Source of the DNA: Carcharhinus longimanus
Taxonomy: Eukaryota
NCBI GenBank assembly: GCA_030264375.1
Contig: JASCQW010000133.1
Span: 31,637,554-31,701,553, forward strand
Direction: 5' to 3'
Length of the DNA stretch: 64,000 bases
The notes beneath the pieces are model-generated. The model saw only the letters and a list, made by a program, of their open reading frames with translations, was not told the origin of the DNA and did no database searches. Shown one piece after another: positions 10,810-63,125 of the stretch. Positions within the stretch are counted from its first letter, which is position 1; the number at the start of each line of letters is the position of its first letter. The position numbers and the translations under genes were made by a program.

Positions 10810-11240
10810 TAAATACCTCCACATCAATATCCCCAACCTCAACTAAATACTCCCCATTATCAATACCCCAGCCTCATCTAAATACCTCCACATCAATATC
10901 CCCAACCTCAACTAAATACTCCCCATATCAATACCCCAGCCTCATCTAAATACCTCCACATCAATATCCCCAACCTCAACTAAATACTCCCCATTATCAA
11001 TACCCCAGCCTCATCTAAATACCTCCACATCAATATCCCCAACCTCAACTAAATACTCCCCATATCAATACCCCAGCCTCATCTAAATACCTCCACATCA
11101 ATATCCCCAACCTCAACTAAATACTCCCCATTATCAATACCCCAGCCTCATCTAAATACCCCACATCAATATCCCAGCCTCAATTACATACCCCTGTATC
11201 AATATCCTCAGCCTCAACTAAATACCCCACATCAACATCT
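10810..11240. repeat. C/A-rich minisatellite: 34-35-bp subunits forming alternating 69/68-bp units
   Basis: Units start at 10810, 10879, 10947, 11016, 11084, 11153; then degenerate; abuts N gap. Confidence 0.95.
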
Positions 11241-14075: not shown

Positions 14076-15395
14076 TTGAAATTGCTAGAATCAATCATTA
14101 AGGAGATAACTGGGCATTTGGAAAGACAAAGCTCAATCAACCATTGTCAGCATGGTTTTATGAAGGGAAACTCATGCTTGACAAACTTGCTTGAATTCTT
14201 TGTGGGTGCAACAAGGTGGATAGTGGGGAGCCTATGGATTTGGTATACCCAGACTTCAAGAAGGCGTTTGACAAGGTGCCGCATAAAAGACTGATCCAGA
14301 AGGTGAGATTGCAGGGGATTGGTGGTGGAGTATGAGGTTGGATTGAGGATTGGCTGACTAACAGAAAGCAGAGGTTCGGAATGAGTGGATCCTTCTCTGG
14401 CTGATAAAATGTAACTGATTGGGTGCAGGGGTCGGTCCTTGGACCTCAACTGTTTACAATCCATATAAATGATCTGCAAGCAGGGACAGAGGGCAACATA
14501 GCAAAATTTATGGATGATACAAAAATAGGTGGGAAAGCAGGCAGTGAAGAGGATATAAAGATTCTACAGACGGATATAGATAGGCTAAGAGAATAGGCCA
14601 AAATTTGGCAGTTGGAGTTTAATAAGCATGAGATTATCAATTTTTGCAGAAAAACAATGGAAATGCAAGTTATTGCCTAAATGGAAAACAGATTAAAAAT
14701 ATGTCTGGGCAGAGGGATCTGGCTGTCTGTGTTCATGAATCACAGAAAGTCAGTATGCAGGTGCAGTATGTAATAAATAAGGCAAATGGGATGTTGGCAT
14801 TTATTGCAAAAGAACTGGAGTATAAAAGTGTTGTTGCAATTGTATTGGGTGTTGGTCAGATCACATCTGGAATATTGTGTTCAGTTTTGGTCTCTTTATT
14901 TGAGGAAGGACGTAGTGGCATTGGAGGCAGTTCAGAGGAAGTTCACCAGATTGATTCCAGGGTTGAATGAGTTGACATATGAGGAGAGATTAAAAAGTTT
15001 GGGCTTGTATTTGCTAGAGTTTAGAAGGGATCTGATTGAGGTATATAAAATTTTAAAAGGGATTGTTAACGTAAATATCGACCAAATGTTTCCCCTTATG
15101 GGGCAATCTAGAACAAAAGGTCACAGGTATAGGTTGCAAGGCAGTAGATTTAAAACAGAGATGAGGAGGAACTGCTTCTCGCAGAGGCTGGTAAATTTGT
15201 GGAACTCGCTGTCCCATAGCGCAATGGAGTCTGAATCGTTGAATGGTTTCGAGAGGGAGATAGATATATTTCTAATAGAGAAAGGAAAAGGGGGATATGT
15301 GGTACAGGTGGGGAGGTGGATCAGCCATGATCTGATTGAATGGCTGAGCAGGCTCGAAGGGCTGAATTTGTCTACTTCTGCTCCTAATTCCCATG
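14076..15395 (+). mobile_element. 5'-truncated CR1 LINE (RT domain to 3' tail), frameshifted
   Basis: QHGFMKGNSCLTNLLEFF, LVRSHLEYCVQFWS, RNCFSQRLVNLWNSL; CR1 tail. Confidence 0.92.
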
Positions 15396-16706
15396 TTGGC
15401 CTCTTATGGAACACCCTAAGGTTCTTCTCAGAATGTTCCTGTTGCTGTCAGTGATTCCCAAGATGTGAACTGATGAATGTTATAATATTGCTGGAGTCAC
15501 ACTGTCCTTAGTGCAACTAATTGTACTGGAGGAACAATAGAGCCAAATAAAACCAGGGACCAGCACCAGGTGCTGCAAGTGGAGCAGAATTTCCAGGCGA
15601 TATTAAGAATGACATCACTCCAAGATAGCAAATGATAACCATGAATCATAGAAACTGGTAAATGAAACATCAGAACACTTTAGTTTCTGACATAATTTCA
15701 ACAAATCTATATTCATACTTTAATTTGGACGCAGTGGCTACTAATGATTGGAAAAAGAGCATGTGGAAAAGACTTTGTTGATAATCTTGAATAACCAGTA
15801 AATACCAGAGCTGAGTTTATTAAAGAAAGCATGCAAAAGTACCAACGAGAGCATGTAAATTTCCAATGCAGACTTTGATCCTGTATGATTGAATACTGAA
15901 ATAATTTGTGCTGGAGAAGGGTGAAACTAAAATGTTCTCAATTGTTACGGGACTCTGAACTCAGTTCACCAGCAAAACAACCACAAATTGTTCACACTGA
16001 ACATTTTATTTGAAAACACTCAAGAAATAATTGTTTTGTCATTATAAGGATGAGTACAACACCTAGAACTAGTGTAAAATCTCGGATGTCATCATTTCTG
16101 TTCACTTGCTGTTTAATTTGGCAGTTTTATTCCACTGTCTTCCAACAGTCAAAGTAGACCAGGAGAGCTAAAACCCAGCGATAAGGCATTATCTATTCAA
16201 CTCCTGGATTCACCCACGCCTTATCTGGATGCCAGACAGATGAAGGCATATGCCAGTCTGTTGGAAGCAAAACTAAGACTTGAATGAATGGTGTCAGCCA
16301 AAGAAAAGTATGCAACATTACTGAACTAAAGAGAAGTATCTGGGGTAAAAACGTAACTGAAGATTTGCATTTTCTATATAAAACCCACCTCATGATATTA
16401 TTTTGTTTAAGCAGCAAAACAGCTGTTAGTAGAGTTCCAAAGTTGCATCATCAAACAATACTTAGCGAAAGTGAAAATGTACTATGTTAGAGAATCAGCC
16501 AGTACAGGATATTCTGACTACAAACGTTCATTTTCCTGAACAGAAACAAAATCTTGTCATATGGAATCTCTCTCTTCACCTTCCAAACTCTTGATATTTG
16601 TCTTAATCTTTCTTGTCTCCATTTCACCTGATAACACTGGTAACATTCTCTCTAAATGTTCCTCGACATATTATTCCAAACATTTCTGACCTAACTTTAG
16701 AACAGT

Positions 16707-28342: not shown

Positions 28343-29067
28343 CTCTCTTCCTTATTTTCGAGTGAATATATCAGAAAAAAAATCCCAACAGGTCAGGTCT
28401 AGTAATGGAGCATCTCCTCTCTGTTGGAAGCTCATTTAACCTGAGGTCTAGAATTAAGTTTTACTATTGCATTACATTACCAAGTGCTCAAGGAGAGGCA
28501 AGGCATGGAATGGAATTTAACATATTCAGTCCTACGTTCATTATATTTGGCAAAGTATGGGATCTTTTTGGTGTATGGACTCACAATCAATGGCATTCCT
28601 CTGTTGACTCACTTCATTAACCTTTCTTCACCACGTGAATCTTGACAGTGAACGATGCCACGTTTTTCACCATGCAACTTGTCCTCATTAAACATCAATG
28701 TAGACACACCTTTCACCAAGAGATGCTGGACAGCAATCACAAAAGTGTGAAGACTAACTGATTTTAAGTGAATCCTACAATCACAAAATTATTTTCTACG
28801 GCTGCGGTTGAGAGTGCTATCCTTTTTGGATATCTGTTCTGGTCGTTTTGTCTTAGGAAAGTAAACTTTTGAAGGGTACAGTATTGAGCCAGGAATGGTA
28901 TTTCTTGATTAAATCTGTTCTCAAAGAATTTTGACAATTTAGATAGAACTTAATTCTAGACCTCAGATTAAATGAGCCTCCAACAGAGAGGAGATGCTCC
29001 ATATTAGAGCTGACTTGTTGGAATTTTTTTTCTGATATAGTCACTGTATAAAGTAAGGAAGACAGAG
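28343..29067. repeat. ~125-bp imperfect inverted repeat arms (28343-28465 and 28941-29067) with ~475-bp spacer
   Basis: ORF track shows the near-identical peptide MEHLLSVG(S/G)SFNLRSRIKFY on opposite strands. Confidence 0.9.
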
Positions 29068-29540
29068 TTCTGAACAATGAAAATTATCCTTGTCTCATTA
29101 TTACTGCTGGTTGCGTCCAGGGAAAAGGCTACAGTCCCTCAGATGCAGGACAGATCAGTTCTTGAGCTTGTTTGTGCCTCTTGACATTTAATAGGAGTTT
29201 GATGAATGGATGAAGAAATGAACTCAGGGTGGGACTCGCTGATTATTTTAATGTACTAGAATAGATTTTAATACATTTTAATCAGTTAGATTTTCATGGT
29301 GGGGTTTTCTCCCTTTGAATGTTATCTTAATTTATAAATAATTTTGTTTTAACGAACGAGCTATGTACTCAAAATGAATTCCTGAATGGACAATAAAGTG
29401 AAATTGAATTGACTTCCCTTTCTTGTTAGTCCCATAGGCAATGGGGACTTCAAACCAATGATCATCCTAGCGTGTTGCCCAGGACCATAATGGGTATGAT
29501 GGGCATGATAATTACTCACTTTTCTAGTGGTAGTCCTTAC

Positions 29541-30044
29541 CTGCAAAGGATTCCAAGTCTTAAAGAATTCTTTCAGCAGTGGAAATACAATGGCAATGGA
29601 AAGCTCTGCAAGGTCAAACATTTTGTACTCCTCAAAATATTTCTCCTGCAGCATCTCAAAGATTTTTGCACATTCTTCCAGGGTCAATGGATTGTCACAG
29701 TTCGGCTGAAGTCTCTTCTCACAGTCCTCCACAATCTGTAAGATGCTGCTGAGCTTGTCTATGATCTTATCCTCATGGGCGAGGATTTCAGAGAGCTTCT
29801 CATTCTCATGGGAGAGGTTGACCACCATGTCCCTCTCATACTGTAGCTGACGGTCATTCTGGATGATCTCTTGCTCAGTCATTTCAATGAGCAGTTGCAG
29901 GTTGTGCTCCAGCTCGGGGAGGGAAAAACCTTCTGACTTGGCATCTTTAACAGGGGACTGCGTGTCATCAGGAATATCATGCTTCTGGTTCATCTGACTG
30001 TAACTGTAGTAGACTTTCTGCTCCTTTCCCGTCATGTCTATAAC
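29541..30044 (-). CDS. TFIP11: TFIP11 large coding exon
   Basis: [17 protein letters not shown]...[14 protein letters not shown]...WNPLQ; tag/gtaag boundaries; 504 nt. Confidence 0.96.
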
Positions 30045-51187: not shown

Positions 51188-51559
51188 CTGGGAGGAAAAT
51201 AGGAGTGAAACCAGTTTCAAAGCTTGTTGAGGCAGAAATATCTGGCACAGAGGTTACCTATAAGAATCAGCAATTTCACCCCTTTGGGATGGGTTGAATC
51301 TGCAGTCCAAGTCCAGTTGCCTTGGTACAGAAATACTTTCAAGCAGGAGTTTTAACTGCCTGAACCTGTTGGTCACTAGGAATTAAAATCAAGTAGCTTT
51401 GTTTGGTTGAAGCAGGGCTACAACTGAGGTTCAGGAGCCTCATTTATATGCAAACCAGTGCAACATGAGCCCCCAATGGCAACCTATTGAAAGAAATGGG
51501 CTCTCCTGGAAGATAAGTTTTCTACTTAATTTGCCGCCCTTCTCATACTCTTCCCTTCA

Positions 51560-51980
51560 AACACACAAAGTAGGAGAAATAGGCCATTAGGCCCATTGAG
51601 CCTGCTCTCCACCATTCAATAAGATCGTGGCTAATCTGTTTGTGTGGAGATCCACATTCCCTCTTGATTCCCTTGCTTAACAAATATCCATCAACATCTA
51701 TGTCATAAAAATATTCAATCACCCCACTTCCACCACCTTCTGAGATAGAGAGTTCCAAAGTCACACAATCTTGGGAAAAAAATGGCAGGTGGGGGCAGAC
51801 AACAAAGGTCCGTTGACCTCAGATGGGATTTTCCGGTTTTGGGGCAAGCATGGGTAGAAAATTCCACCCATTCTCCTCATCTTTGTCCTAAACAGGTAGC
51901 CCCTAATTTTAGAACAATGTCCCCTGGTTCCAGACTCACCCACAAGAAGAAACATCCTTTCCACATCCACTTTGTCAAAA
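51560..51980 (-). mobile_element. CR1 3' fragment with small GC-rich MITE-like insert (~51775-51870)
   Basis: DKVDVERMFLLVGESGTRGHCSKIRG; CR1 tail. Confidence 0.65.
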
Positions 51981-53114
51981 TTGCAGAATGTGTTGCTCCT
52001 CATCACAACTGCTGCCTTCCTTGCACTCAGGTGGACTTTCAATTATATTTGGAAGCCTTGTCTTCACTCAATACTGAGAGGGTGATGATACCCTGCATGC
52101 CTGAGCTCGCCCCACAAGCAAACCCACTGACACCCGTGTCCAGTGGTCAAGAGCTCCCTAGCAGCCACTCATCCTCTTATTAGCCCAATATGTTTTCCTC
52201 TGGGATGGACATGACCAGCTGTCTGTTGTGTTGCTGCTCCACTATCTGACTCAATGTGTAGCTGCAACGTGTAGCTGCACACTCCCACCAGATTTTCAAC
52301 AGAGCTCTCTACGAGCTTTCAAGTTCTTTCACAATCTTAGCTGGACCTATTTGGGAATCAGGCAGATTTCCAAGACCAGCCTTCAGTTGAAGCTCAATGG
52401 GAAACATGGTACCACTTTTTTAAAAAATTGGAAACCCACGTACCCCTCCTCTGCTGGCGGAGAGAATGAGAGAGACTGGACTATGGGGAGAAAAATAGGG
52501 AGCCAAATGCAGCTGGGCAACACTGGACTGAAGCGGATTTTTTCCCCTCAAGCCAGATGGTAGTTTCCTAGTGGGATGGAGAGTGGGAGAGGCTAGAATA
52601 AAGGAAAGTGGATGGGAAAGAGCAGAAGGGATAGCGGTGGCACATTCCTTCCTGATGGAGAGGGGAACATGATGAAAGAAGAGTTGCACTGGATTAGGTA
52701 GAGTATGATATCCACCTCCACGGAGCTGACTTTCTTCAGCTGGGGTAAAGACTTTCTGTTCAACTATACAGTGGGCTGGGAGGGATGCGGTAGGTGCTTA
52801 GTGGAGAGAAGGTCTGAAGTGTGCTCTTAGCAGAGGGGTTGGGATTGGCAGTTACGAAGCTGCAGTCACAATTCATATTTTTAAATTTACAATTGAGTAA
52901 CCGAATTCCACTCCAGAAGCTGTCCCATTTGATTGGATGCTTCATCTTCACCTTTCCAAGAACAATGATGTCCATTGGCTATTTATTTGGGGCAGGGGTG
53001 GACCTCCCATCCTCAGCTGCTGCTAAGTTTTGTAATTTTCGCCATTTTCATTTTGCATCTCTCATCTTGAATACAAATTTTTTGATTTTCTGGTGAAACT
53101 AGGGAATTAGAGGC

Positions 53115-53580
53115 ATAGAGGTTTACAGTTTGGAAACAGCCCCTTTGGCCCAGCTTGCCCATGCCACCCAGTTTTTAAACTGCTAAGCCAGTGCCAATTG
53201 CCCACATTTGGCCTAAATTCCTCAATACCCATCTTACACAAGCAATTGTCTAAATGTTTTTTTAAAAGATAAAATTGTGCCCGCCTTTACCACTGCATCT
53301 GGCAGTTCATTCCAGTCACTCATCACCCTACATGGAAAAAATTGCCCCTCTGAATCCTTTTGTATCTCCCCCCTCACGTTAAACCTATGCCCTCTAGTTT
53401 TAGACTCCCCTATTTTTGGGAAAAATGTTGATTATCTAGCTGATCTATGCCCCTCATTATTTTATAGGCCTCCAAGATCACCCCTCAGCCTTCTACACGC
53501 CAGGGAAAAAAGTCCCAGATTATCCAGCCTCTGTTTATAACTCAAGCCATCAAATCCTGGTAAATCTTTTCTGCACCATT
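53115..53580 (-). mobile_element. CR1 3' fragment
   Basis: Antisense C-terminal ORF2 sequence (cctctagttttagactcccc; atcacccctcagccttctacac). Confidence 0.65.
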
Positions 53581-54241
53581 TCTTAATGGTTCTTGGATAT
53601 GGTCCTTTCACAACAAATGTTCTGAAAAAAGTTTATTTGCAACTGCAGATATATAGCTCTTGCAAAGCTACCAGCGCTACTTACATTAAGCGAGGAATTA
53701 ATTGTGATTACTCAGTCTTTAGGGTGGTCATATTTATATCACCACCTATTGGCATCTTGAGATGATTCACCATTTTTAATACATAATGGTATATCAAAAT
53801 AGAAGTCCAGTCTTGCTTTCAAAATACAACTCATTCTGGCTTTTCTTCAGACTTCACCATCACCCTATAATTTTAATTCTACAGCCAAAATCAGCCCACC
53901 ATTCCTTCCCCAACTTTTGGATGGTCTCAGTTGAATACCTAAGCAGGTGATCTGTGTTCCTGCTTTCTGCCATTTGCAACTTACATGATAGCGACCAGCC
54001 TGACTTCATTCCCTCAGGAAGCCTCCATCCATCTGTTCCTAATGACAGTACAGCCAAGGTTAGGCTATCAACAAGTGAGGAATCATGGGAACAAGCCAAT
54101 CTGAAATATTGTAACTCCTAACCTTACATTTTTAGAGAATCCTCGTCAATTGTTCAGGCAGCACCTTGGTATCAAGTGAATAAAGCTTGTAGGCAATCTA
54201 CCCAAAGCACTACGATTCTTCAACAGAATGCCTCGCTATAC

Positions 54242-54413
54242 CTTCTACCACTCGGAGAACCGATCCATCCTTCAGTCCTTCTATACTGGACAATTCCACA
54301 AAGTTATCCAGAATGTTGCCATCGTGCTGGAGAGAGAAGCAGGTCCGATGGCATGTGTCCTCCCGTTCCATCAGAACCTGGATAATCTCCTGGACCATCT
54401 CTTGAGCTGATAC
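54242..54413 (-). CDS. CLUH-like (clustered mitochondria protein) exon, CLU N-terminal domain
   Basis: [57 protein letters not shown] closely resembles vertebrate CLUH; cag/gt boundaries; orthologue versus paralogue unresolved. Confidence 0.88.
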
Positions 54414-55390: not shown

Positions 55391-55703
55391 CTGCAGAGAA
55401 TGAAACATAAACTCTAAAGGAACAAAGCTTGAGAATTGTGACCAGTAAATTTTAATGTAAATGACTGCACACCATAACAGAAACCATGAAGCATGAATAC
55501 ATAATACAAAGCTGCTATTCAGAGACATAAGAACATAAGAAATAGGAGGAGTAGGCCATCTAGCCCTTTGAGCCTGCCCCGCCATTCAATAAGATCATGG
55601 CTNNNNNNNNNNNNNNNNNNNNNNNNNNNNNNNNNNNNNNNNNNNNNNNNNNNNNNNNNNNNNNNNNNNNNNNNNNNNNNNNNNNNNNNNNNNNNNNNNN
55701 NNG

Positions 55704-56540
55704 CAGATCGACTTCAGAGGCCCCCGACCCACTCGCCGAGGGAAGAAATATTGTTTAGTCTTAATCGATCAATTCACCCGCTGGGTGGAAGCATTCCCAA
55801 CTCGGGATTGCGAAGCGGTCACCGTGGCCCGCATCTTAGCATACGAGATCATCCCGAGACGGGGAGTCCTGCTGCAACTGGATTCCGACCAAGGGACACA
55901 CTTTACGGGCAAAATAATGAAACAGGCTTACAAAACCCTGGGAATCCGACAGTGATCCCATATCCCGTACCGCCTTCAGAGTTCTGGGATCGTCAACGGA
56001 ATGAACCGCACACTGAAAAATGCGATTGCAAAGTCAATCGCAGAGACAGGTCAGGGGTGGGTAGATGTCCTTCCCTACATCTTAATACGCCTACGAACCA
56101 CCCCAGGTCACACCACAGGACTCACATCATTCGAATTAATGACGTGGAAGGCAATGAGACTCCCAGAAAATACAGCAGTAGAAGGAGAAAAGATGGCACC
56201 CCTTCGGGATAAAATGAAAAGGTATGTGCAACAGTTAGACCACTAACTCAGAGAGTTGCACCACGCAGCCGGAGACCAACAAGCTATAAGGGACCAGGCT
56301 AGGAAGCAGGACATCAGCCACACCACCAGACTTCCCTGAGTAGGGGACAAAGTCCTAATCCGAGTGGCTCCCGACCAAACAGGATTTTCACCAAAGTGGA
56401 TAGGACCCCATGAGATTATCCTCAGCAGCGACACATGTGCCTGTGTCGATATCAAAAAGAAAGGCCGCTGGAAATACTGGTCTCAGTTAAAGGCATACCA
56501 CCCCCCGGGAAGGAGGGAAGGGGTGCGGGGGGTGGGGTAG
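55704..56540 (+). pseudogene. pol: Endogenous retrovirus pol integrase (core and C-terminal region) with in-frame stops
   Basis: QIDF...YCLVLIDQFTRWVEAFPT...EIIPR...DSDQGTHFTG...QSSGIVNGMNRTLK...WVDVLP...GLTSFELM...SPKWIGPHEII...WSQLK; 5' part lost in gap. Confidence 0.92.
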
Positions 56541-56827
56541 GGAGGGTGGGAGGGGGTAGGGGGAAGACAGGACAGGCCGACGGCAGGGACGAGGATAATC
56601 CGAGGATACATAACAGGCCACTCAACGACCCCTAACTAACCACCCTTGTCCACACAGCGGAGGCCGAGCTAACAACCTTCATTTCTAGCACAGAGGAGAG
56701 CCACATGTCAAACATGGCTCCGATATTTGTATGTATGTATATAGATGTGTGTGCATGCTTAAGTAAACTAGTTAAAATATAGTTAATACTGAGATCGTAA
56801 TATCTGGCGGCCACCAGGCTTTGTGTA

Positions 56828-56848
56828 CCCTCCCCACCCCCTCTCCAG
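56828..56848 (+). promoter_or_regulatory. Probable env splice acceptor
   Basis: Pyrimidine tract ccctccccaccccctctcCAG, 13 nt before the env ATG at 56862. Confidence 0.55.
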
Positions 56849-56861
56849 GGCCACCTGGAGA

Positions 56862-58925
56862 ATGATCCTCATTGCGATCTTCTTGACGAGTGTCGCCTTC
56901 CGGGGGCACAGCATCTATCAACAATCCCACCGAATAATGTTCAAAACGTCCGAGGCGTTGTGCGCGCCGGCGGCACCATGCCCCGAGAACAACAGAATGC
57001 ACTCAAATGCATGGTTACAGGTCCATCCAGGCATCGATGTGATCTGCTTCACTTGCACACTAGATATGCTCCGAACATGCATCCAAAGGCCAGACTCGCT
57101 GAGCGACCCTGGCTGCAGTTTCTGGGCCATCTGTGCCCTCCCTGAAAATCCGCAGATCCCACTGCAAAGGGACATTCTCAAACCGGACATTGATACTTGT
57201 GGATATTACGGACTAGTTGAGGCTCCAGTAGTCTCACTATATGTATGTTTTGCACTTCCTATAACGCGGACCCCCACGACCACAACACGCGAAATCTTAC
57301 CCTGCCCCTTACTGAGCGGGGGGTTTCGGGGGTGGGGGGGCGGAGAGAGGACTGGTGATCGTGCCTGTTCTGATCGATATCTCAGGGATCCAGGTGCCGG
57401 GATACTGTTCAGAACAGACACGAGACATGTACCAAATGCTGGGCAGGGAAACCATAAAGCGGGCTATAGATGCGATGGGAGCAACACACTATAGAGGCAA
57501 CACAAGCACACACACACACGCACACAGAAACAATGGGGGTATAGTCAATGACATCCTCACAGGAATAAACACCGGATCCACCGTAGTCAACTCAATTTTC
57601 ATCCAGGGCCTCAATAATAAGATCGAACAATTAAAGGGAATGATGAAAGATATTCTGCAACGGTCACTAGACCAACAGGCGGAGAAGGCGCTTTTAGGGG
57701 AGAAGGGCGCCCATGTCCAACGTGATGGAATCACAATATTAGAAACGCACACCCGTACCATTAACCGCCTCATAGATAGAGAGAGGGAAAACACAGCCCG
57801 GGTACAACAGGGACAGCTGTGCCGTGCATACGGTCAGTGGATGATAGGCCCATTGAGGCATAATTTGGACGAGGTACACAGGGGGGAGGTGCCCGATTGG
57901 ATTGACAGCACCCAGCTAGCACAACTCGCAGATCAGAAAGTGGGTGCTGGATAACGGACCTTGAAAGGAATGACACGGGTTTATCCAGTGATCCCGGACT
58001 ACGAGGTTAGCGAGAGTACGGGAGTAGGGATTGTCCTATTGATTCCGATAGTTACACCAGACTCGGGACCATTCCCTATATTCCAGATTGAGAACATTGG
58101 TGTGATTAAAGGCAATACCTCCCTCCGCTACTACATAACCGAAGTCACGGCCTCTCGAGGCATGTCGTGAAGTTCAGTACCTCCCTCTCGGGATGCAATC
58201 AAAGGGGAGAGGTAACCATTTTCCCTCACCCACTGACACAAGGAGAGGTAGCTGAATGTGGGTTCAATCAAACACAGGGCTGTACTCTACAAATCATACC
58301 GACAGACCCACACTTTGCCTGGGCAGGATATGGAGGACGAAACGGGTACTGCGTAGCCACAACAAATTAATCCTTTGCATATAACGGGCTGACATGTCCG
58401 ATCCCCAGCCCAAACTTTTACTTCACCCCTGGCAGACCAGTCACTATTGGCCAGGTCCACAGCACCAACATTCGAACTCGGCAGACCCTGACACTTAATG
58501 CCACGGACCCACTGAGAAATGACCTCAATTATTACCGAGAGCCAGAACAGGCTCCCATCCTACACCTAGCCGAAGTACTGAGAGAGCTCCGTCTCAAAGT
58601 GGGACACACCGTTCGGCTGTACCACCAGTTACAATCACACATCAAGACCCTAGAGCATGACACAGAGTCAGACTTACAGAGCCAAACATGGGCACAGAGG
58701 GTATGGGACTGGGGCCTAAATGTGGACTTTCACCCCTCGATCCGGATATTCTCACACATACTGGTTGCCACCCAACTCATACTCGCAATATCTTGGGGAA
58801 TAGTGATGTGCTATACATACCGCCAGCGCAAGGAAACTAAAACACGGAGGAAACTAATCAGAATGATTGGCGATGTGGGGCAACTAACAAATCGGGAGGA
58901 CTTCTCCCGCATACACCTAGTTTGA
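56862..58925 (+). pseudogene. env: Endogenous retrovirus env, ~690 codons, with stops and frameshifts
   Basis: Signal peptide MILIAIFLTSVAF; fusion-peptide/heptad segment GIVNDILTGINTGSTVVNSIFIQGLNNKIEQLK; Cys-rich region; TM IFSHILVATQLILAISWGIVMCYTY followed by RQRK; lies between integrase and LTR. Confidence 0.85.
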
Positions 58926-59055
58926 CAAACCTCGGGGGTCCCCTAAACTGCACGACTTCAGCGTGCAAATGCAGGGAGCACCTGACACAAAATGTGTTAA
59001 AGAAATCGGTCTGAGGGAGGCGGAACAAGTCCGCTCCCGACCGACAGCGGGGAAC

Positions 59056-59708
59056 TGTTATCGGACAACAAATTGTATGAAATTGGGTACACAATATGGA
59101 AGCAGATTAAAGCTGCACTCAGAGCCTCCTCACTAAAGATCACAAGGGAACAGATCCAGACAAACAGGCAAAAGGCATGTTTTTAAACTGCAAACTTGGC
59201 CTAGCACACAAAGGGAACCAGACAGGATGGCACCAACAGGAACTAAATTAAAAGTACACCACCATCTCATCAAATCAGCACATCTAATCAAGTAAACCTC
59301 TATGGAGACACTTAAAGATTAACATAACTAGGGAAGCCTCCCTGGCCTCACAGACTTCCTAAAATCAGCCAAACACCCATTGCTCAAACCCCTGAGATTC
59401 TAGACCATTGATAAACCCATCAGACAGAAACGATTAACACACACTTAAAAACATTGTTACGTTACTTGAAAACATCGAAACAGAATGCTCAGAGTCAAAC
59501 ACTGTAAATAAAACATTAACATTTGAACCATACAATGTGTCAAAGCTTGAGTGTAACTCTAGCCCATTGTGGCGGGCCTTCAGAGTGCTATCAGGACATT
59601 CTGTATGTATGTCCTGACTGCACCTCCGTCGACGTTAAAATAAAGCTGTACCGCTGTTGAACCTGACTCTGAGTCCGTAGTGGTCGTGCCCGCCCACTCG
59701 CGCTAACA
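59056..59708 (+). mobile_element. 3' LTR of the endogenous retrovirus
   Basis: Starts TGTTA, ends TAACA; preceded by purine-rich agcggggaac; AATAAA at 59639-59644. Confidence 0.8.
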
Positions 59709-61351: not shown

Positions 61352-62690
61352 TAAGAACATAAGAACTAGGAGCAGGAATAAGCCATTTGGCACCTTGAGC
61401 CTGCTTGTCCATTCAACACGATCATGGCTGAACTTTTCGTGGACTCACCTCCACTTATCCACCCACTCACCATTGTTCTTAATGCCTTTACTGTCCAGCC
61501 ACAACTGCTTCACTAAGCAAGGAATTCCACAGATTTGGAACCCTTTGTGTGAAGAAGTTCCTCCTCTGTCCTAGATCTGCGATCTTTATTTTGAGGCCAT
61601 GCCCCCGAGTTCTAGCTTTGCTTACCAGTGGAAACAACTTCCCTGCTTCTATCTTATCTATTCCCTTCATAATCTTATATGTGTTTTTTTTATGTATAGG
61701 ATTCCCCCCTCATTCTTCTGAATTCCAATGAGTATAGCGCAGCCTGCTTAGTCTCCCCTCATAATCCAACCCTCTCAACTGCTGAATCAACCTAGTGAAT
61801 TTCTTCTGCAGCCCCTTCAATGCAAGTATATCCTTTATCAAGTAAGCAGACCAAAACAGTACACAGTACCCTAGGTGTGGCCTCACCAGCACCTTACACA
61901 GCTGCAACATTAACTCATTGTTTTAAAATCCATCCCTCTAGCAATGAAGAACAAAATTCAATTTGCCTTCTCAATTTCCTGCTGCGTCTGAAAACCAACG
62001 TTTTGTGATTCTTGCACAAGGACACTCAAGTCCCTCTGCAAAGCAGCATGTTGCATTTTTTTTTTGTCATTTAAATAGTAGTCCATTTTGCTATTATTCC
62101 TAACAAAATGGATGGCCTCACATTTACCAACATTGTACTCCATCTGCCACACCCTTGCCCACTCACTTAGACGATTTATATCTATTTGCAGACTTACAGC
62201 GTCCTCTGTACATTTTGCTCCACTCCGCATCTCAGTGCCATCTGTCAATTTTGACACACTACATTTGGTCCCCAACTCCAAATCATCGATGTAAATCGTA
62301 AATAATTGCACTCCCAGCGCTGATCCCTAAGGCACACCACTAGTCACTGATTACCAAACAGAACAAGACCCGTTTATCCCACTCGTGCTCTCTGTTAGTT
62401 AACCAATCCTCTGTCCACGGTAAGACGTTGCCCCTAACACCGTGCACTTTTGTCTTATGCAGCAGTCTTTGGTGCAGCGCCTTGTCAAATGATTTCTGGA
62501 AATCCAGATACACCATATCAACAGGTTTCCCATTGTCCACTGCACATGCAATGTTCACATAGAATTCCACTAAATTAGTCAAACATGACCTGCCCTGCAT
62601 GAACCCATGCTGCGTCTTACCAATCGGACAATTTATATCCAGATGTCTCGCTATTTCTTTCTTGATGATAGATTCAAGCATGATAGATTT
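61352..62690 (-). mobile_element. CR1 LINE RT region to 3' tail
   Basis: QHGFMQGRSCLTNLVEF, VYLDFQKSFDK, QLFTIYIDDL, LVRPHLGYCVLFWS, RNFFTQRVPNLWNSL. Confidence 0.92.
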
Positions 62691-62759
62691 TACCTTCTCA
62701 TGTTCCATCTGTATTTTAAATTCAAACATACTGTGATCTCTTCTTCCAAAATGATCCCA

Positions 62760-63125
62760 ACTGAAAGATAATTATCTATTCCTGATGAATAAATCACCGA
62801 GATGAGACGGACTACATCCCAGAGTTCTGAAGGACATAGGTGAAGAGATAGAGGAGGTATTTGTGGTGATCTTACGAGATTCACAGAAGTTATGCAGTTT
62901 CTCTGGGTGACCACCAGACAGTGGAAGAGAGATAGACAGGAAGTGCAGAAATCTCCGGCGGTCATTTCCCTGCAAGTCAGATCTGCCGCTTTGGATACTG
63001 TTGGGGGGACTGACCGCTCCAGAGAGAGCACCAGCAGCCAAACGCTACCAAACTCCACCACAGCTGGTTCCGTTGCAGAGGGAAGGGATAAAAATTCCAC
63101 CTCGGCCCCCATGACTCTCTTGTAG
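62760..63125 (+). mobile_element. CR1 ORF1-like fragment in opposite orientation
   Basis: WVTTRQWKRDRQEVQKSPAVISLQVRSAALDTVGG resembles elasmobranch CR1 ORF1. Confidence 0.5.

Follow-up and report, generated by a model that had tools for sequence, protein, structure and literature searches.

A shark endogenous retrovirus family that probably pairs a canonical Pol with a paramyxovirus-F-like, class Ib Env

In Fernandez et al. 2024 (PMC11468914), the envelope protein (Env) of orthoretroviruses is a class Ia fusion protein and foamy virus Env is class Ib, and fusogens recording a stepwise gain of domains are said to be lacking. Lokiretroviruses were defined by their reverse transcriptase (RT) in Wang and Han 2021 (PMC7947760). 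Their RNase H grouped with that of foamy viruses and their integrase (IN) with CGIN1, and none of the six chondrichthyan genomes screened, Chiloscyllium punctatum included, was positive. Wang and Han 2022 (PMC9040795) preferred independent acquisition of env by lokiretroviruses and canonical retroviruses, no similarity being detectable. Han 2015 (PMC4422223) placed lineage I of the endogenous retroviruses (ERVs) of Callorhinchus milii (CmiERV) with snakehead retrovirus (SnRV). Chen et al. (bioRxiv 2021.11.23.469661) surveyed gamma- and beta-type Env only and called epsilonretroviral Env neither, and PMC13524379 announced a vertebrate ERV study for a later report. Here we describe the 3′ end of a decayed provirus in 64,000 nucleotides of DNA from Carcharhinus longimanus (contig JASCQW010000133.1; this whole stretch is called the window) and the shark ERV family to which it belongs. 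Our reading, which we hold at a probability of about 75% together with the mechanism proposed below, is that the family combines a class Ib Env carrying an N-terminal module with a canonical Pol, neither loki- nor foamy-type, that lies in or next to the class III-related SnRV clade and has an epsilon-like RNase H and IN.

The provirus remains, at 55703-59708 of the window, comprise integrase, env and the 3′ long terminal repeat (LTR) (Table 1). The element begins at an assembly gap. The window lacks the 5′ LTR, gag and the regions for protease (PR), RT and RNase H, and no second copy was found within its 64 kb. An earlier, sequence-only reading of this DNA had reported an integrase with SDQGTHFT, an env of about 690 codons and an LTR with TGTTA...TAACA ends, and all three are present. 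The integrase occupies one frame with three internal stops, and env runs from ATG to stop over 688 codons in three frame segments. A splice acceptor had also been reported. There is a candidate site but not a unique one, since 4 of the 13 YAG sites between IN and env have at least 10 pyrimidines in 15, the best being 56846. The spacing is 320 nt between IN and env and 130 nt between env and LTR, and AATAAA occurs at LTR positions 452 and 584. In Pfam, IN matched rve (E 4.7e-12) and, weakly, MLVIN_C (E 0.039); its third catalytic acidic residue is not conserved. The F2-like segment of env is broken by a frameshift and sequence loss at ~57318-57357, and the F1-like ectodomain by stops at 57952 and 58368 and a frameshift near 58150. 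The window copy is a dead, inert fossil and cannot make a working protein. GC content of the element is ~0.51 against 0.40 in the flanks, and the CpG observed/expected ratio is 0.64 against 0.27.

Intact relatives of this env are found in other sharks. Mustelus asterias has two intact Envs, XP_078074422.1 (714 aa) and XP_078084570.1 (701 aa). When the intact Mustelus Env was compared with the window by tblastn, its residues 3-158, 182-444 and 444-701 were covered at 62, 76 and 70% identity, so the env reading goes beyond chance. The middle env piece of the window retrieved three proteins among 2909 candidates, all from sharks. With the intact Mustelus Env as query, 8 of 7980 candidates matched, from Mustelus, Chiloscyllium, Heterodontus and Pristiophorus. 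These nearest relatives are all sharks and suggest, at 62-76% identity to Mustelus, a shark host for the element, in agreement with the cartilaginous-fish host proposed from the sequence. A 6-sequence Env profile gave 49 matches at E ≤0.001 over 1.84 billion representatives. Ten of these matches were looked up, and eight of them carry a species name: the sharks Chiloscyllium, Scyliorhinus, Heterodontus and Pristiophorus (two), the skate Rhinoraja, and Pelodytes and Mantella among frogs. The remote group consists of true homologs: hhalign gave a probability of 99.9% over 508 columns, and a profile of nine remote members scored the Mustelus Env at E 4e-59. Intact multi-copy env open reading frames (ORFs) occur in Mustelus and Mantella. 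In the Mantella cluster 12 of the 15 members listed are 677 aa long, and this equal length suggests recent spread. Chiloscyllium punctatum, negative in the lokiretrovirus screen, carries the shark Env family.

From the 46 new profile matches, 11 were omitted from the alignment used for folding (P0216, P0218, P0220, P0222, P0227, P0233, P0239, P0241, P0245, P0255 and P0257) because they were short, carried frameshifts, were chimeric or, like the Calx-beta repeat protein P0245, were false matches. In three shark gene models (P0233, P0239 and P0067), fragments of this env family are joined with domains of host proteins (Niban-like, caspase, PF01105). These fusions are probably annotation chimeras.

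An AlphaFold2 model was built for the intact Mustelus Env with 41 sequences, not for the window copy itself. Foldseek of this model on PDB gave 253 matches at E ≤0.001, and all 39 of the rows listed were paramyxo- or pneumovirus F proteins. The best match had E 1.5e-10 over 473 columns. VIA gave Z 12.1 for human parainfluenza virus 3 (hPIV3) F (root-mean-square deviation, rmsd, 15.4; 325 aligned) and Z 11.3 for Nipah F (rmsd 4.8; 283 aligned). In a wide search independent of Foldseek, F proteins took ranks 1-6, 8 and 10, with Newcastle disease virus F at Z 10.1, while rank 9 was a foamy Env and rank 7 an unrelated helical match. Foamy Env structures 8rm0 and 8rm1 were matched at Z 8.0 (rmsd 6.0, 266 aligned) and Z 7.1. 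Model residues 161-555, which span the cleavage site, align with F residues 26-432 in the F-type domain I-III topology, and both subunits contribute. The F-protein architecture proposed from the sequence is thus matched by the structure of an intact relative's model, and the fold comparison then suggested, against paramyxo-/pneumovirus F and foamy Env, returned structural matches to both.

The model was also compared with predicted viral structures in BFVD. Among the matches listed (50 of 59), arthropod and fish RNA-virus glycoproteins came first (E 1e-14 to 1e-12), followed by baculovirus F, the Envs of walleye dermal sarcoma virus (WDSV) as well as walleye epidermal hyperplasia virus 1 (WEHV-1) (A4GTG3 and Q9WHI8; E 2.8e-10, with low TM-scores of 0.15 and 0.26) and feline foamy Env (E 3e-5). 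SnRV Env did not appear in this listing. The glycoprotein of a fish filovirus, A0A2P1GML9, was the second-best structural match (E 1.7e-13). The matches to the predicted WDSV and WEHV-1 Envs suggest that epsilonretroviral Env is class Ib as well; our literature search found no statement to that effect. Judged by the model, the Env of the window family is a class Ib fusion protein of the paramyxovirus-F/foamy type. Paramyxo- and pneumovirus F proteins are its best structural matches (intact Env residues 160-620). They differ from it in sequence (8-14% identity, no Pfam Fusion_gly match) and begin at the core. Paramyxovirus F relies on a separate attachment protein.

Sequence features of Env agree with this layout. 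A cleavage site near 57525 with about 460 aa behind it had been noted; the decayed site is followed by about 461 codons, and all motifs quoted around it are present. The length of about 225 aa given for the part before the site also holds when it is counted from the start Met with the signal included, not from the end of the signal (239 aa in the intact relative). The guess that RNNG is a decayed furin site is borne out by the R-x-K-R found at the aligned position in intact relatives. In the intact Env a single furin motif, whose last residue is 239, aligns with the decayed site of the window; 462 residues follow it, and a transmembrane (TM) helix lies near 639-667 with hydropathy up to 1.8. 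Eight F1 cysteines are kept in 19-28 of 20-29 covered rows (C394 19/20, C459 28/28, C534 24/28). As modelled, the intact relatives have the F-type fold and domain order, the furin motif, two heptad helices and the TM helix.

The first reading had already seen no gamma-type TM motifs. We found no CX6CC or immunosuppressive domain (ISD)-like motif in the three env pieces of the window or in the intact relatives P0005/P0007, and no Pfam match to TLV_coat or GP41 for the window pieces or the intact Envs. Pfam gave no useful match at all for these sequences, Fusion_gly (PF00523) included; none of the 46 new profile matches reached E 0.05 for Fusion_gly, and phmmer of the window pieces on PDB gave no useful match. 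Atlas features of Env pointed to Baculo_F / Fusion_gly / Gypsy env. Against solved structures, the 41-sequence profile matched the TM subunit of foamy Env (E 1.6e-5, range to 3e-4) ahead of an unrelated match at 0.0045, and no F protein at E ≤10. The foamy match was missing with three sub-profiles, so that one of four profiles gave it, and we treat it as weak.

The F2 part had been called short. The layout is indeed F-like; the shortness does not hold. The structural alignment to F starts only at Env residue ~160, which pairs with the beginning of mature F, and the part before the cleavage site therefore consists of a Cys-rich module of about 130 aa and an F2-like piece of about 88 aa. In 13 relatives, shortened sequences among them, the stretch before the conserved Cys-Pro hinge ranges from 21 aa (P0248) to 228 aa. 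UniRef labels the N-terminus of one relative Ig-like, and that of another matched V-set at E 0.045. Among five long N-termini (10 pairs), kinship was detectable for the frog pair only. The shark module was modelled with pLDDT 54; this model gave a best Z of 4.2 in VIA and 0 BFVD matches at E ≤0.001, and Atlas gave no useful match on the module. Many of the weak VIA rows are beta-sandwiches, which we did not count as evidence. A degenerate Ig domain was considered for the shark module and rejected, as hhalign against the N-termini of five relatives gave probabilities below 1% throughout. By analogy, the module may be a receptor-binding module.

Pol of the family was reached through IN. The IN search gave 99 matches among 572 candidates. 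The closest Pol is P0075 (74% over 73 aa), together with P0120 (62% over 175 aa) from the same cluster, to which Mustelus XP_078069418.1 also belongs. An RT was assigned to the family via P0120, P0075 and P0118 through this IN kinship. The linkage of IN and env recurs in gene models, namely Chiloscyllium P0006 and Heptranchias P0067 (E 1e-20). The assigned Pol has the layout PR, RT, tether, RNase H and IN, with a dual RNase H. Its best PDB match is murine leukaemia virus (MLV) RT-RNase H (368 bits, residues 104-709), compared with 177 bits for foamy Pol (polymerase only) and 156 for Ty3. Its RNase H matched MLV/XMRV RNase H at 73-99 bits, and at E 1e-5 no part of it matched foamy RNase H. In the RT tree, the family group of 11 rows was split from 16 Ty3/gypsy-like rows with support of 100/100, and in the IN tree the window's IN fell in a 10-row group (94/96) together with the assigned Pol; two short RT rows and one short IN row were left out of these trees for their length. 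Frog and eel Pol matches labelled 'NYNRIN-like' have PQG-type RTs, and the label was therefore not counted towards a loki affinity.

Named lokiretroviral, SnRV, foamy and epsilon sequences were compared by eye with printed alignments, and all identities to them given below are of this kind. The family RT has LPQG, as do 15 of 15 printed canonical retroviral RTs, while PFG is found in 5 of 5 loki RTs. Over a 49-column RT block, identities were 36 for CmiERV lineage I (CmiERV-I), 32 for SnRV, 25 each for feline foamy virus (FFV) and MuLV, 24 each for WDSV and Loki-Lca, and 23 for Loki-Xla. Over two blocks (102 columns, with an upstream block of 53), they were 59 for SnRV, 52 for the lamprey Loki-Lca and 39 for WDSV. 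The assigned RNase H resembles that of WDSV and Xen-1. The window IN has the motif EIIP-x-[WR]-G and an acidic residue before F-x-x-W-x-E; among solved integrases its best match is that of prototype foamy virus (PFV), at 52.8 bits. CmiERV lineage I appears to be the closest known match in Pol and LTR ends. It shares LPQGFHNSP in the RT block, similar IN motifs, TGTTA...TAACA ends, a simple gag-pol-env layout and a chondrichthyan host (PMC4422223). Its env, unlike that of the shark family, is gamma-type, with ISD and CX6CC.

The strongest alternative accepts this identity and differs on history: an SnRV-like backbone would have acquired its F-type env secondarily, by capture from either a lokiretrovirus or an RNA virus, and not by inheritance from a retroviral ancestor. 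Since CmiERV lineage I carries a gamma-type env on a very similar Pol, env swaps have occurred in this clade, and frequent incongruence of Env and Pol is reported in anamniotes (bioRxiv 2021.11.23.469661). The lead of arthropod and fish RNA-virus glycoproteins over retroviral Envs in BFVD also points this way. On the other side, foamy Env and not an F protein is the one solved structure matched at sequence level, epsilon Envs match the fold too, and the Env family goes deep and is diverse, with members in sharks, a skate and frogs. We regard capture as a real contender that falls somewhat short of even odds.

We think it unlikely that this is an epsilon-like (class I) ERV that branched off early and carries a compact Env of the WDSV/WEHV type. 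The C-terminal half of RNase H is near WDSV (33/61), the EIIP-x-[WR]-G motif and the weak MLVIN_C match fit epsilon IN, MLV is the best PDB match of Pol, the WDSV and WEHV-1 Env models are matched, and the Env of the epsilon group is described as neither gamma- nor beta-type (bioRxiv 2021.11.23.469661). However, the RT blocks favour SnRV and CmiERV-I over WDSV. The PDB matches included no SnRV or WDSV Pol, so MLV may be just the nearest available. The TM-scores to the WDSV and WEHV-1 models are low, and those Envs, at 1159-1317 aa, are nearly twice as long; these viruses also have accessory genes.

The two remaining alternatives are far less probable. A cartilaginous-fish endogenous foamy or foamy-like virus would explain the class Ib fold, the Z values to 8rm0 and 8rm1, the profile match over about 190 aa of the foamy TM subunit and PFV as the best solved integrase. 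Foamy Env (PMC11468914; 8ozh, 8rm0, 8rm1), however, comes with a long leader peptide and a pair of furin sites, and its receptor-binding domain (RBD) is inserted between the subunits. The family has a single furin motif, a module at the N-terminus, neither a long leader nor an inserted RBD, and a Pol that is not foamy-type, with no match to foamy RNase H at E 1e-5. The sequence match came from one of four profiles, and the spacings on both sides of env are too short for accessory ORFs such as fish foamy-like ERVs have. We consider this alternative highly improbable.

A first lokiretrovirus of cartilaginous fish, which together with a new F-env retroviral lineage had been offered as the identity of the element, is largely refuted: lokiretroviruses (PMC7947760) share with the family an F-like Env core, a single R-x-K-R, a dual RNase H and a similar first strand ('GP-x-G-[IL]VL', with which the F core opens, resembles the opening of the core in four loki Envs), and the lamprey RT is close in the two blocks, but their RT is PFG-type, their RNase H belongs to the foamy group while that of the family is MLV/WDSV-type, their fusion peptide is strongly hydrophobic, and in the four Envs compared the F core follows directly on the signal peptide, with cleavage at about residue 115-130 and no N-terminal module. 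SDQGTHFT occurs in loki IN too and is not diagnostic. Their IN is CGIN1-like; none of 17 complete rows has EIIP or the acidic residue of the window before F-x-x-W-x-E, the motifs there being T[VC]xC-F-T-K-WVECLP and W-D-x-K-L-P-L-V. The negative chondrichthyan screen and the lack of Fusion_gly matches argue in the same direction. With RT, RNase H and IN features that are canonical, the new F-env lineage is the half of that proposal that stands.

Several points weigh against the combination of canonical Pol and class Ib Env that we prefer. The Env model is middling (pLDDT 63.6, pTM 0.42); its beta domains are good and its residues 4-147 are below 50. Whole-chain rmsd values in the comparisons are large. 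The fusion peptide is weakly hydrophobic (KD19 0.17), and Atlas recognition of Env is low (1608). The window has no RT, and although the IN of the assigned Pol is the closest found (62-74%), the IN tree does not resolve it and the window's IN as sisters. Both trees were built with no named loki, SnRV, foamy or epsilon sequence. The gap between SnRV and Loki-Lca, 59 against 52 of 102 RT columns, is modest, and in the RNase H block SnRV reaches only ~17/61 against the 33/61 of WDSV, so that Pol may lie nearer to SnRV or nearer to the epsilon group.

For an intact member of the family we propose the following mechanism. Env would be made with a signal peptide and would then trimerise. A single furin cut would give an N-subunit of about 220 aa (the Cys-rich module with the strands and helix of the F2-like piece) and a C-subunit of 462 aa, held together by shared beta sheets and probably by a Cys198-Cys334 disulphide, which is suggested by the conserved cysteines and by analogy with F. 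The N-terminal module would bind the receptor, much as the N-terminal module of coronavirus spike does, and no separate attachment protein would then be needed. On triggering, the first heptad helix would refold, the fusion peptide would insert, and the second helix would close the six-helix bundle. Members of the family may be able to exchange the module, and this Pol lineage may have swapped entire env genes of class Ia or Ib.

Table 1. Features of the provirus remains in the window.
Feature	Position	Strand	Remarks
Assembly gap, 100 N	55603..55702		Provirus cut off there
Integrase core and C-terminal part	55704..56540	+	Single frame; internal stops 55953, 56244, 56337
Candidate env splice acceptors	56641..56848	+	YAG 56655, 56686, 56691, 56846; by pyrimidine count
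Env start and short hydrophobic, probably signal-like segment	56862..56915	+	
Cys-rich, beta-rich N-terminal module, ~130 aa, ahead of the F core	56916..57296	+	Putative receptor-binding module
F2-like segment: Cys-Pro hinge, beta strands, helix	57297..57537	+	Ends at decayed furin site 57526-57537
F1-like ectodomain	57538..58739	+	Fusion peptide (amphipathic), a long heptad helix, beta domains that contain a conserved Cys cluster, and a second helix
Transmembrane helix and short cytoplasmic tail	58740..58925	+	Helix ~58740-58820; stop at 58925
Short purine-rich tract, polypurine-tract-like	59046..59055	+	Ahead of LTR
3′ LTR, 653 nt	59056..59708	+	TGTTA...TAACA

The remainder of the window contains host sequence and other repeats. 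A host exon at 29361-30044 (-) matched the GCFC domain (E 1.3e-11) and is presumably TFIP11. A protein-like frame of 76 codons at 54180-54410 (+), about 1.3 kb upstream of the provirus, is probably a host exon and has no Pfam match. The segment 48670-48897 (-), without a Pfam match at E 0.05, resembles what we take to be a decayed histone H2B N-terminus. Remnants of long interspersed element (LINE) RT, presumably CR1-like, lie at 61488-62771 (-), 14777-15454 (+), 51543-52042 (-) and 53234-53431 (-), with an RVT_1 match of E 8e-8 at 62343-62771. Dispersed repeats resembling short interspersed elements are numerous. At 10810-11240, beside a gap, a ~34-nt unit (68-69 nt as a dimer) is repeated in tandem, and nested inverted repeats at 28361-29045 (59 nt at 95% and 44 nt at 89%, ~480-600 nt apart) are MITE-like.

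F-type retroviral Envs are already known. As far as we searched, the new part is the pairing with an SnRV/epsilon-like Pol, the range over cartilaginous fishes and frogs, and the variable N-terminal module. Our literature search, which most subscription papers lay beyond, found no description of the shark/frog Env family. The Env survey in bioRxiv 2021.11.23.469661 would miss it because its queries were gamma- and beta-type only. The preference for independent acquisition (PMC9040795) and the division of retroviral Envs into two classes (PMC11468914) both rest on canonical non-foamy retroviruses having no F-type Env. Both positions are touched by the combination of a canonical Pol, a class Ib Env and an N-terminal module that varies, a combination that challenges the equation of orthoretroviruses with class Ia. 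The pairing also bears on the origin of the retroviral envelope gene. Tentatively, and with the odds still against it, we suggest that class Ib env could be the form ancestral to every vertebrate retrovirus, retained by the loki, foamy and epsilon lineages and by this SnRV-like one, and replaced later by the gamma-type class Ia env. If this were so, the shark and frog family would be the intermediate series said to be lacking, leading from a bare F core (P0248) to an F core with a captured Ig-like or Cys-rich N-terminal module, as in spike, in contrast to the inserted RBD of foamy viruses.

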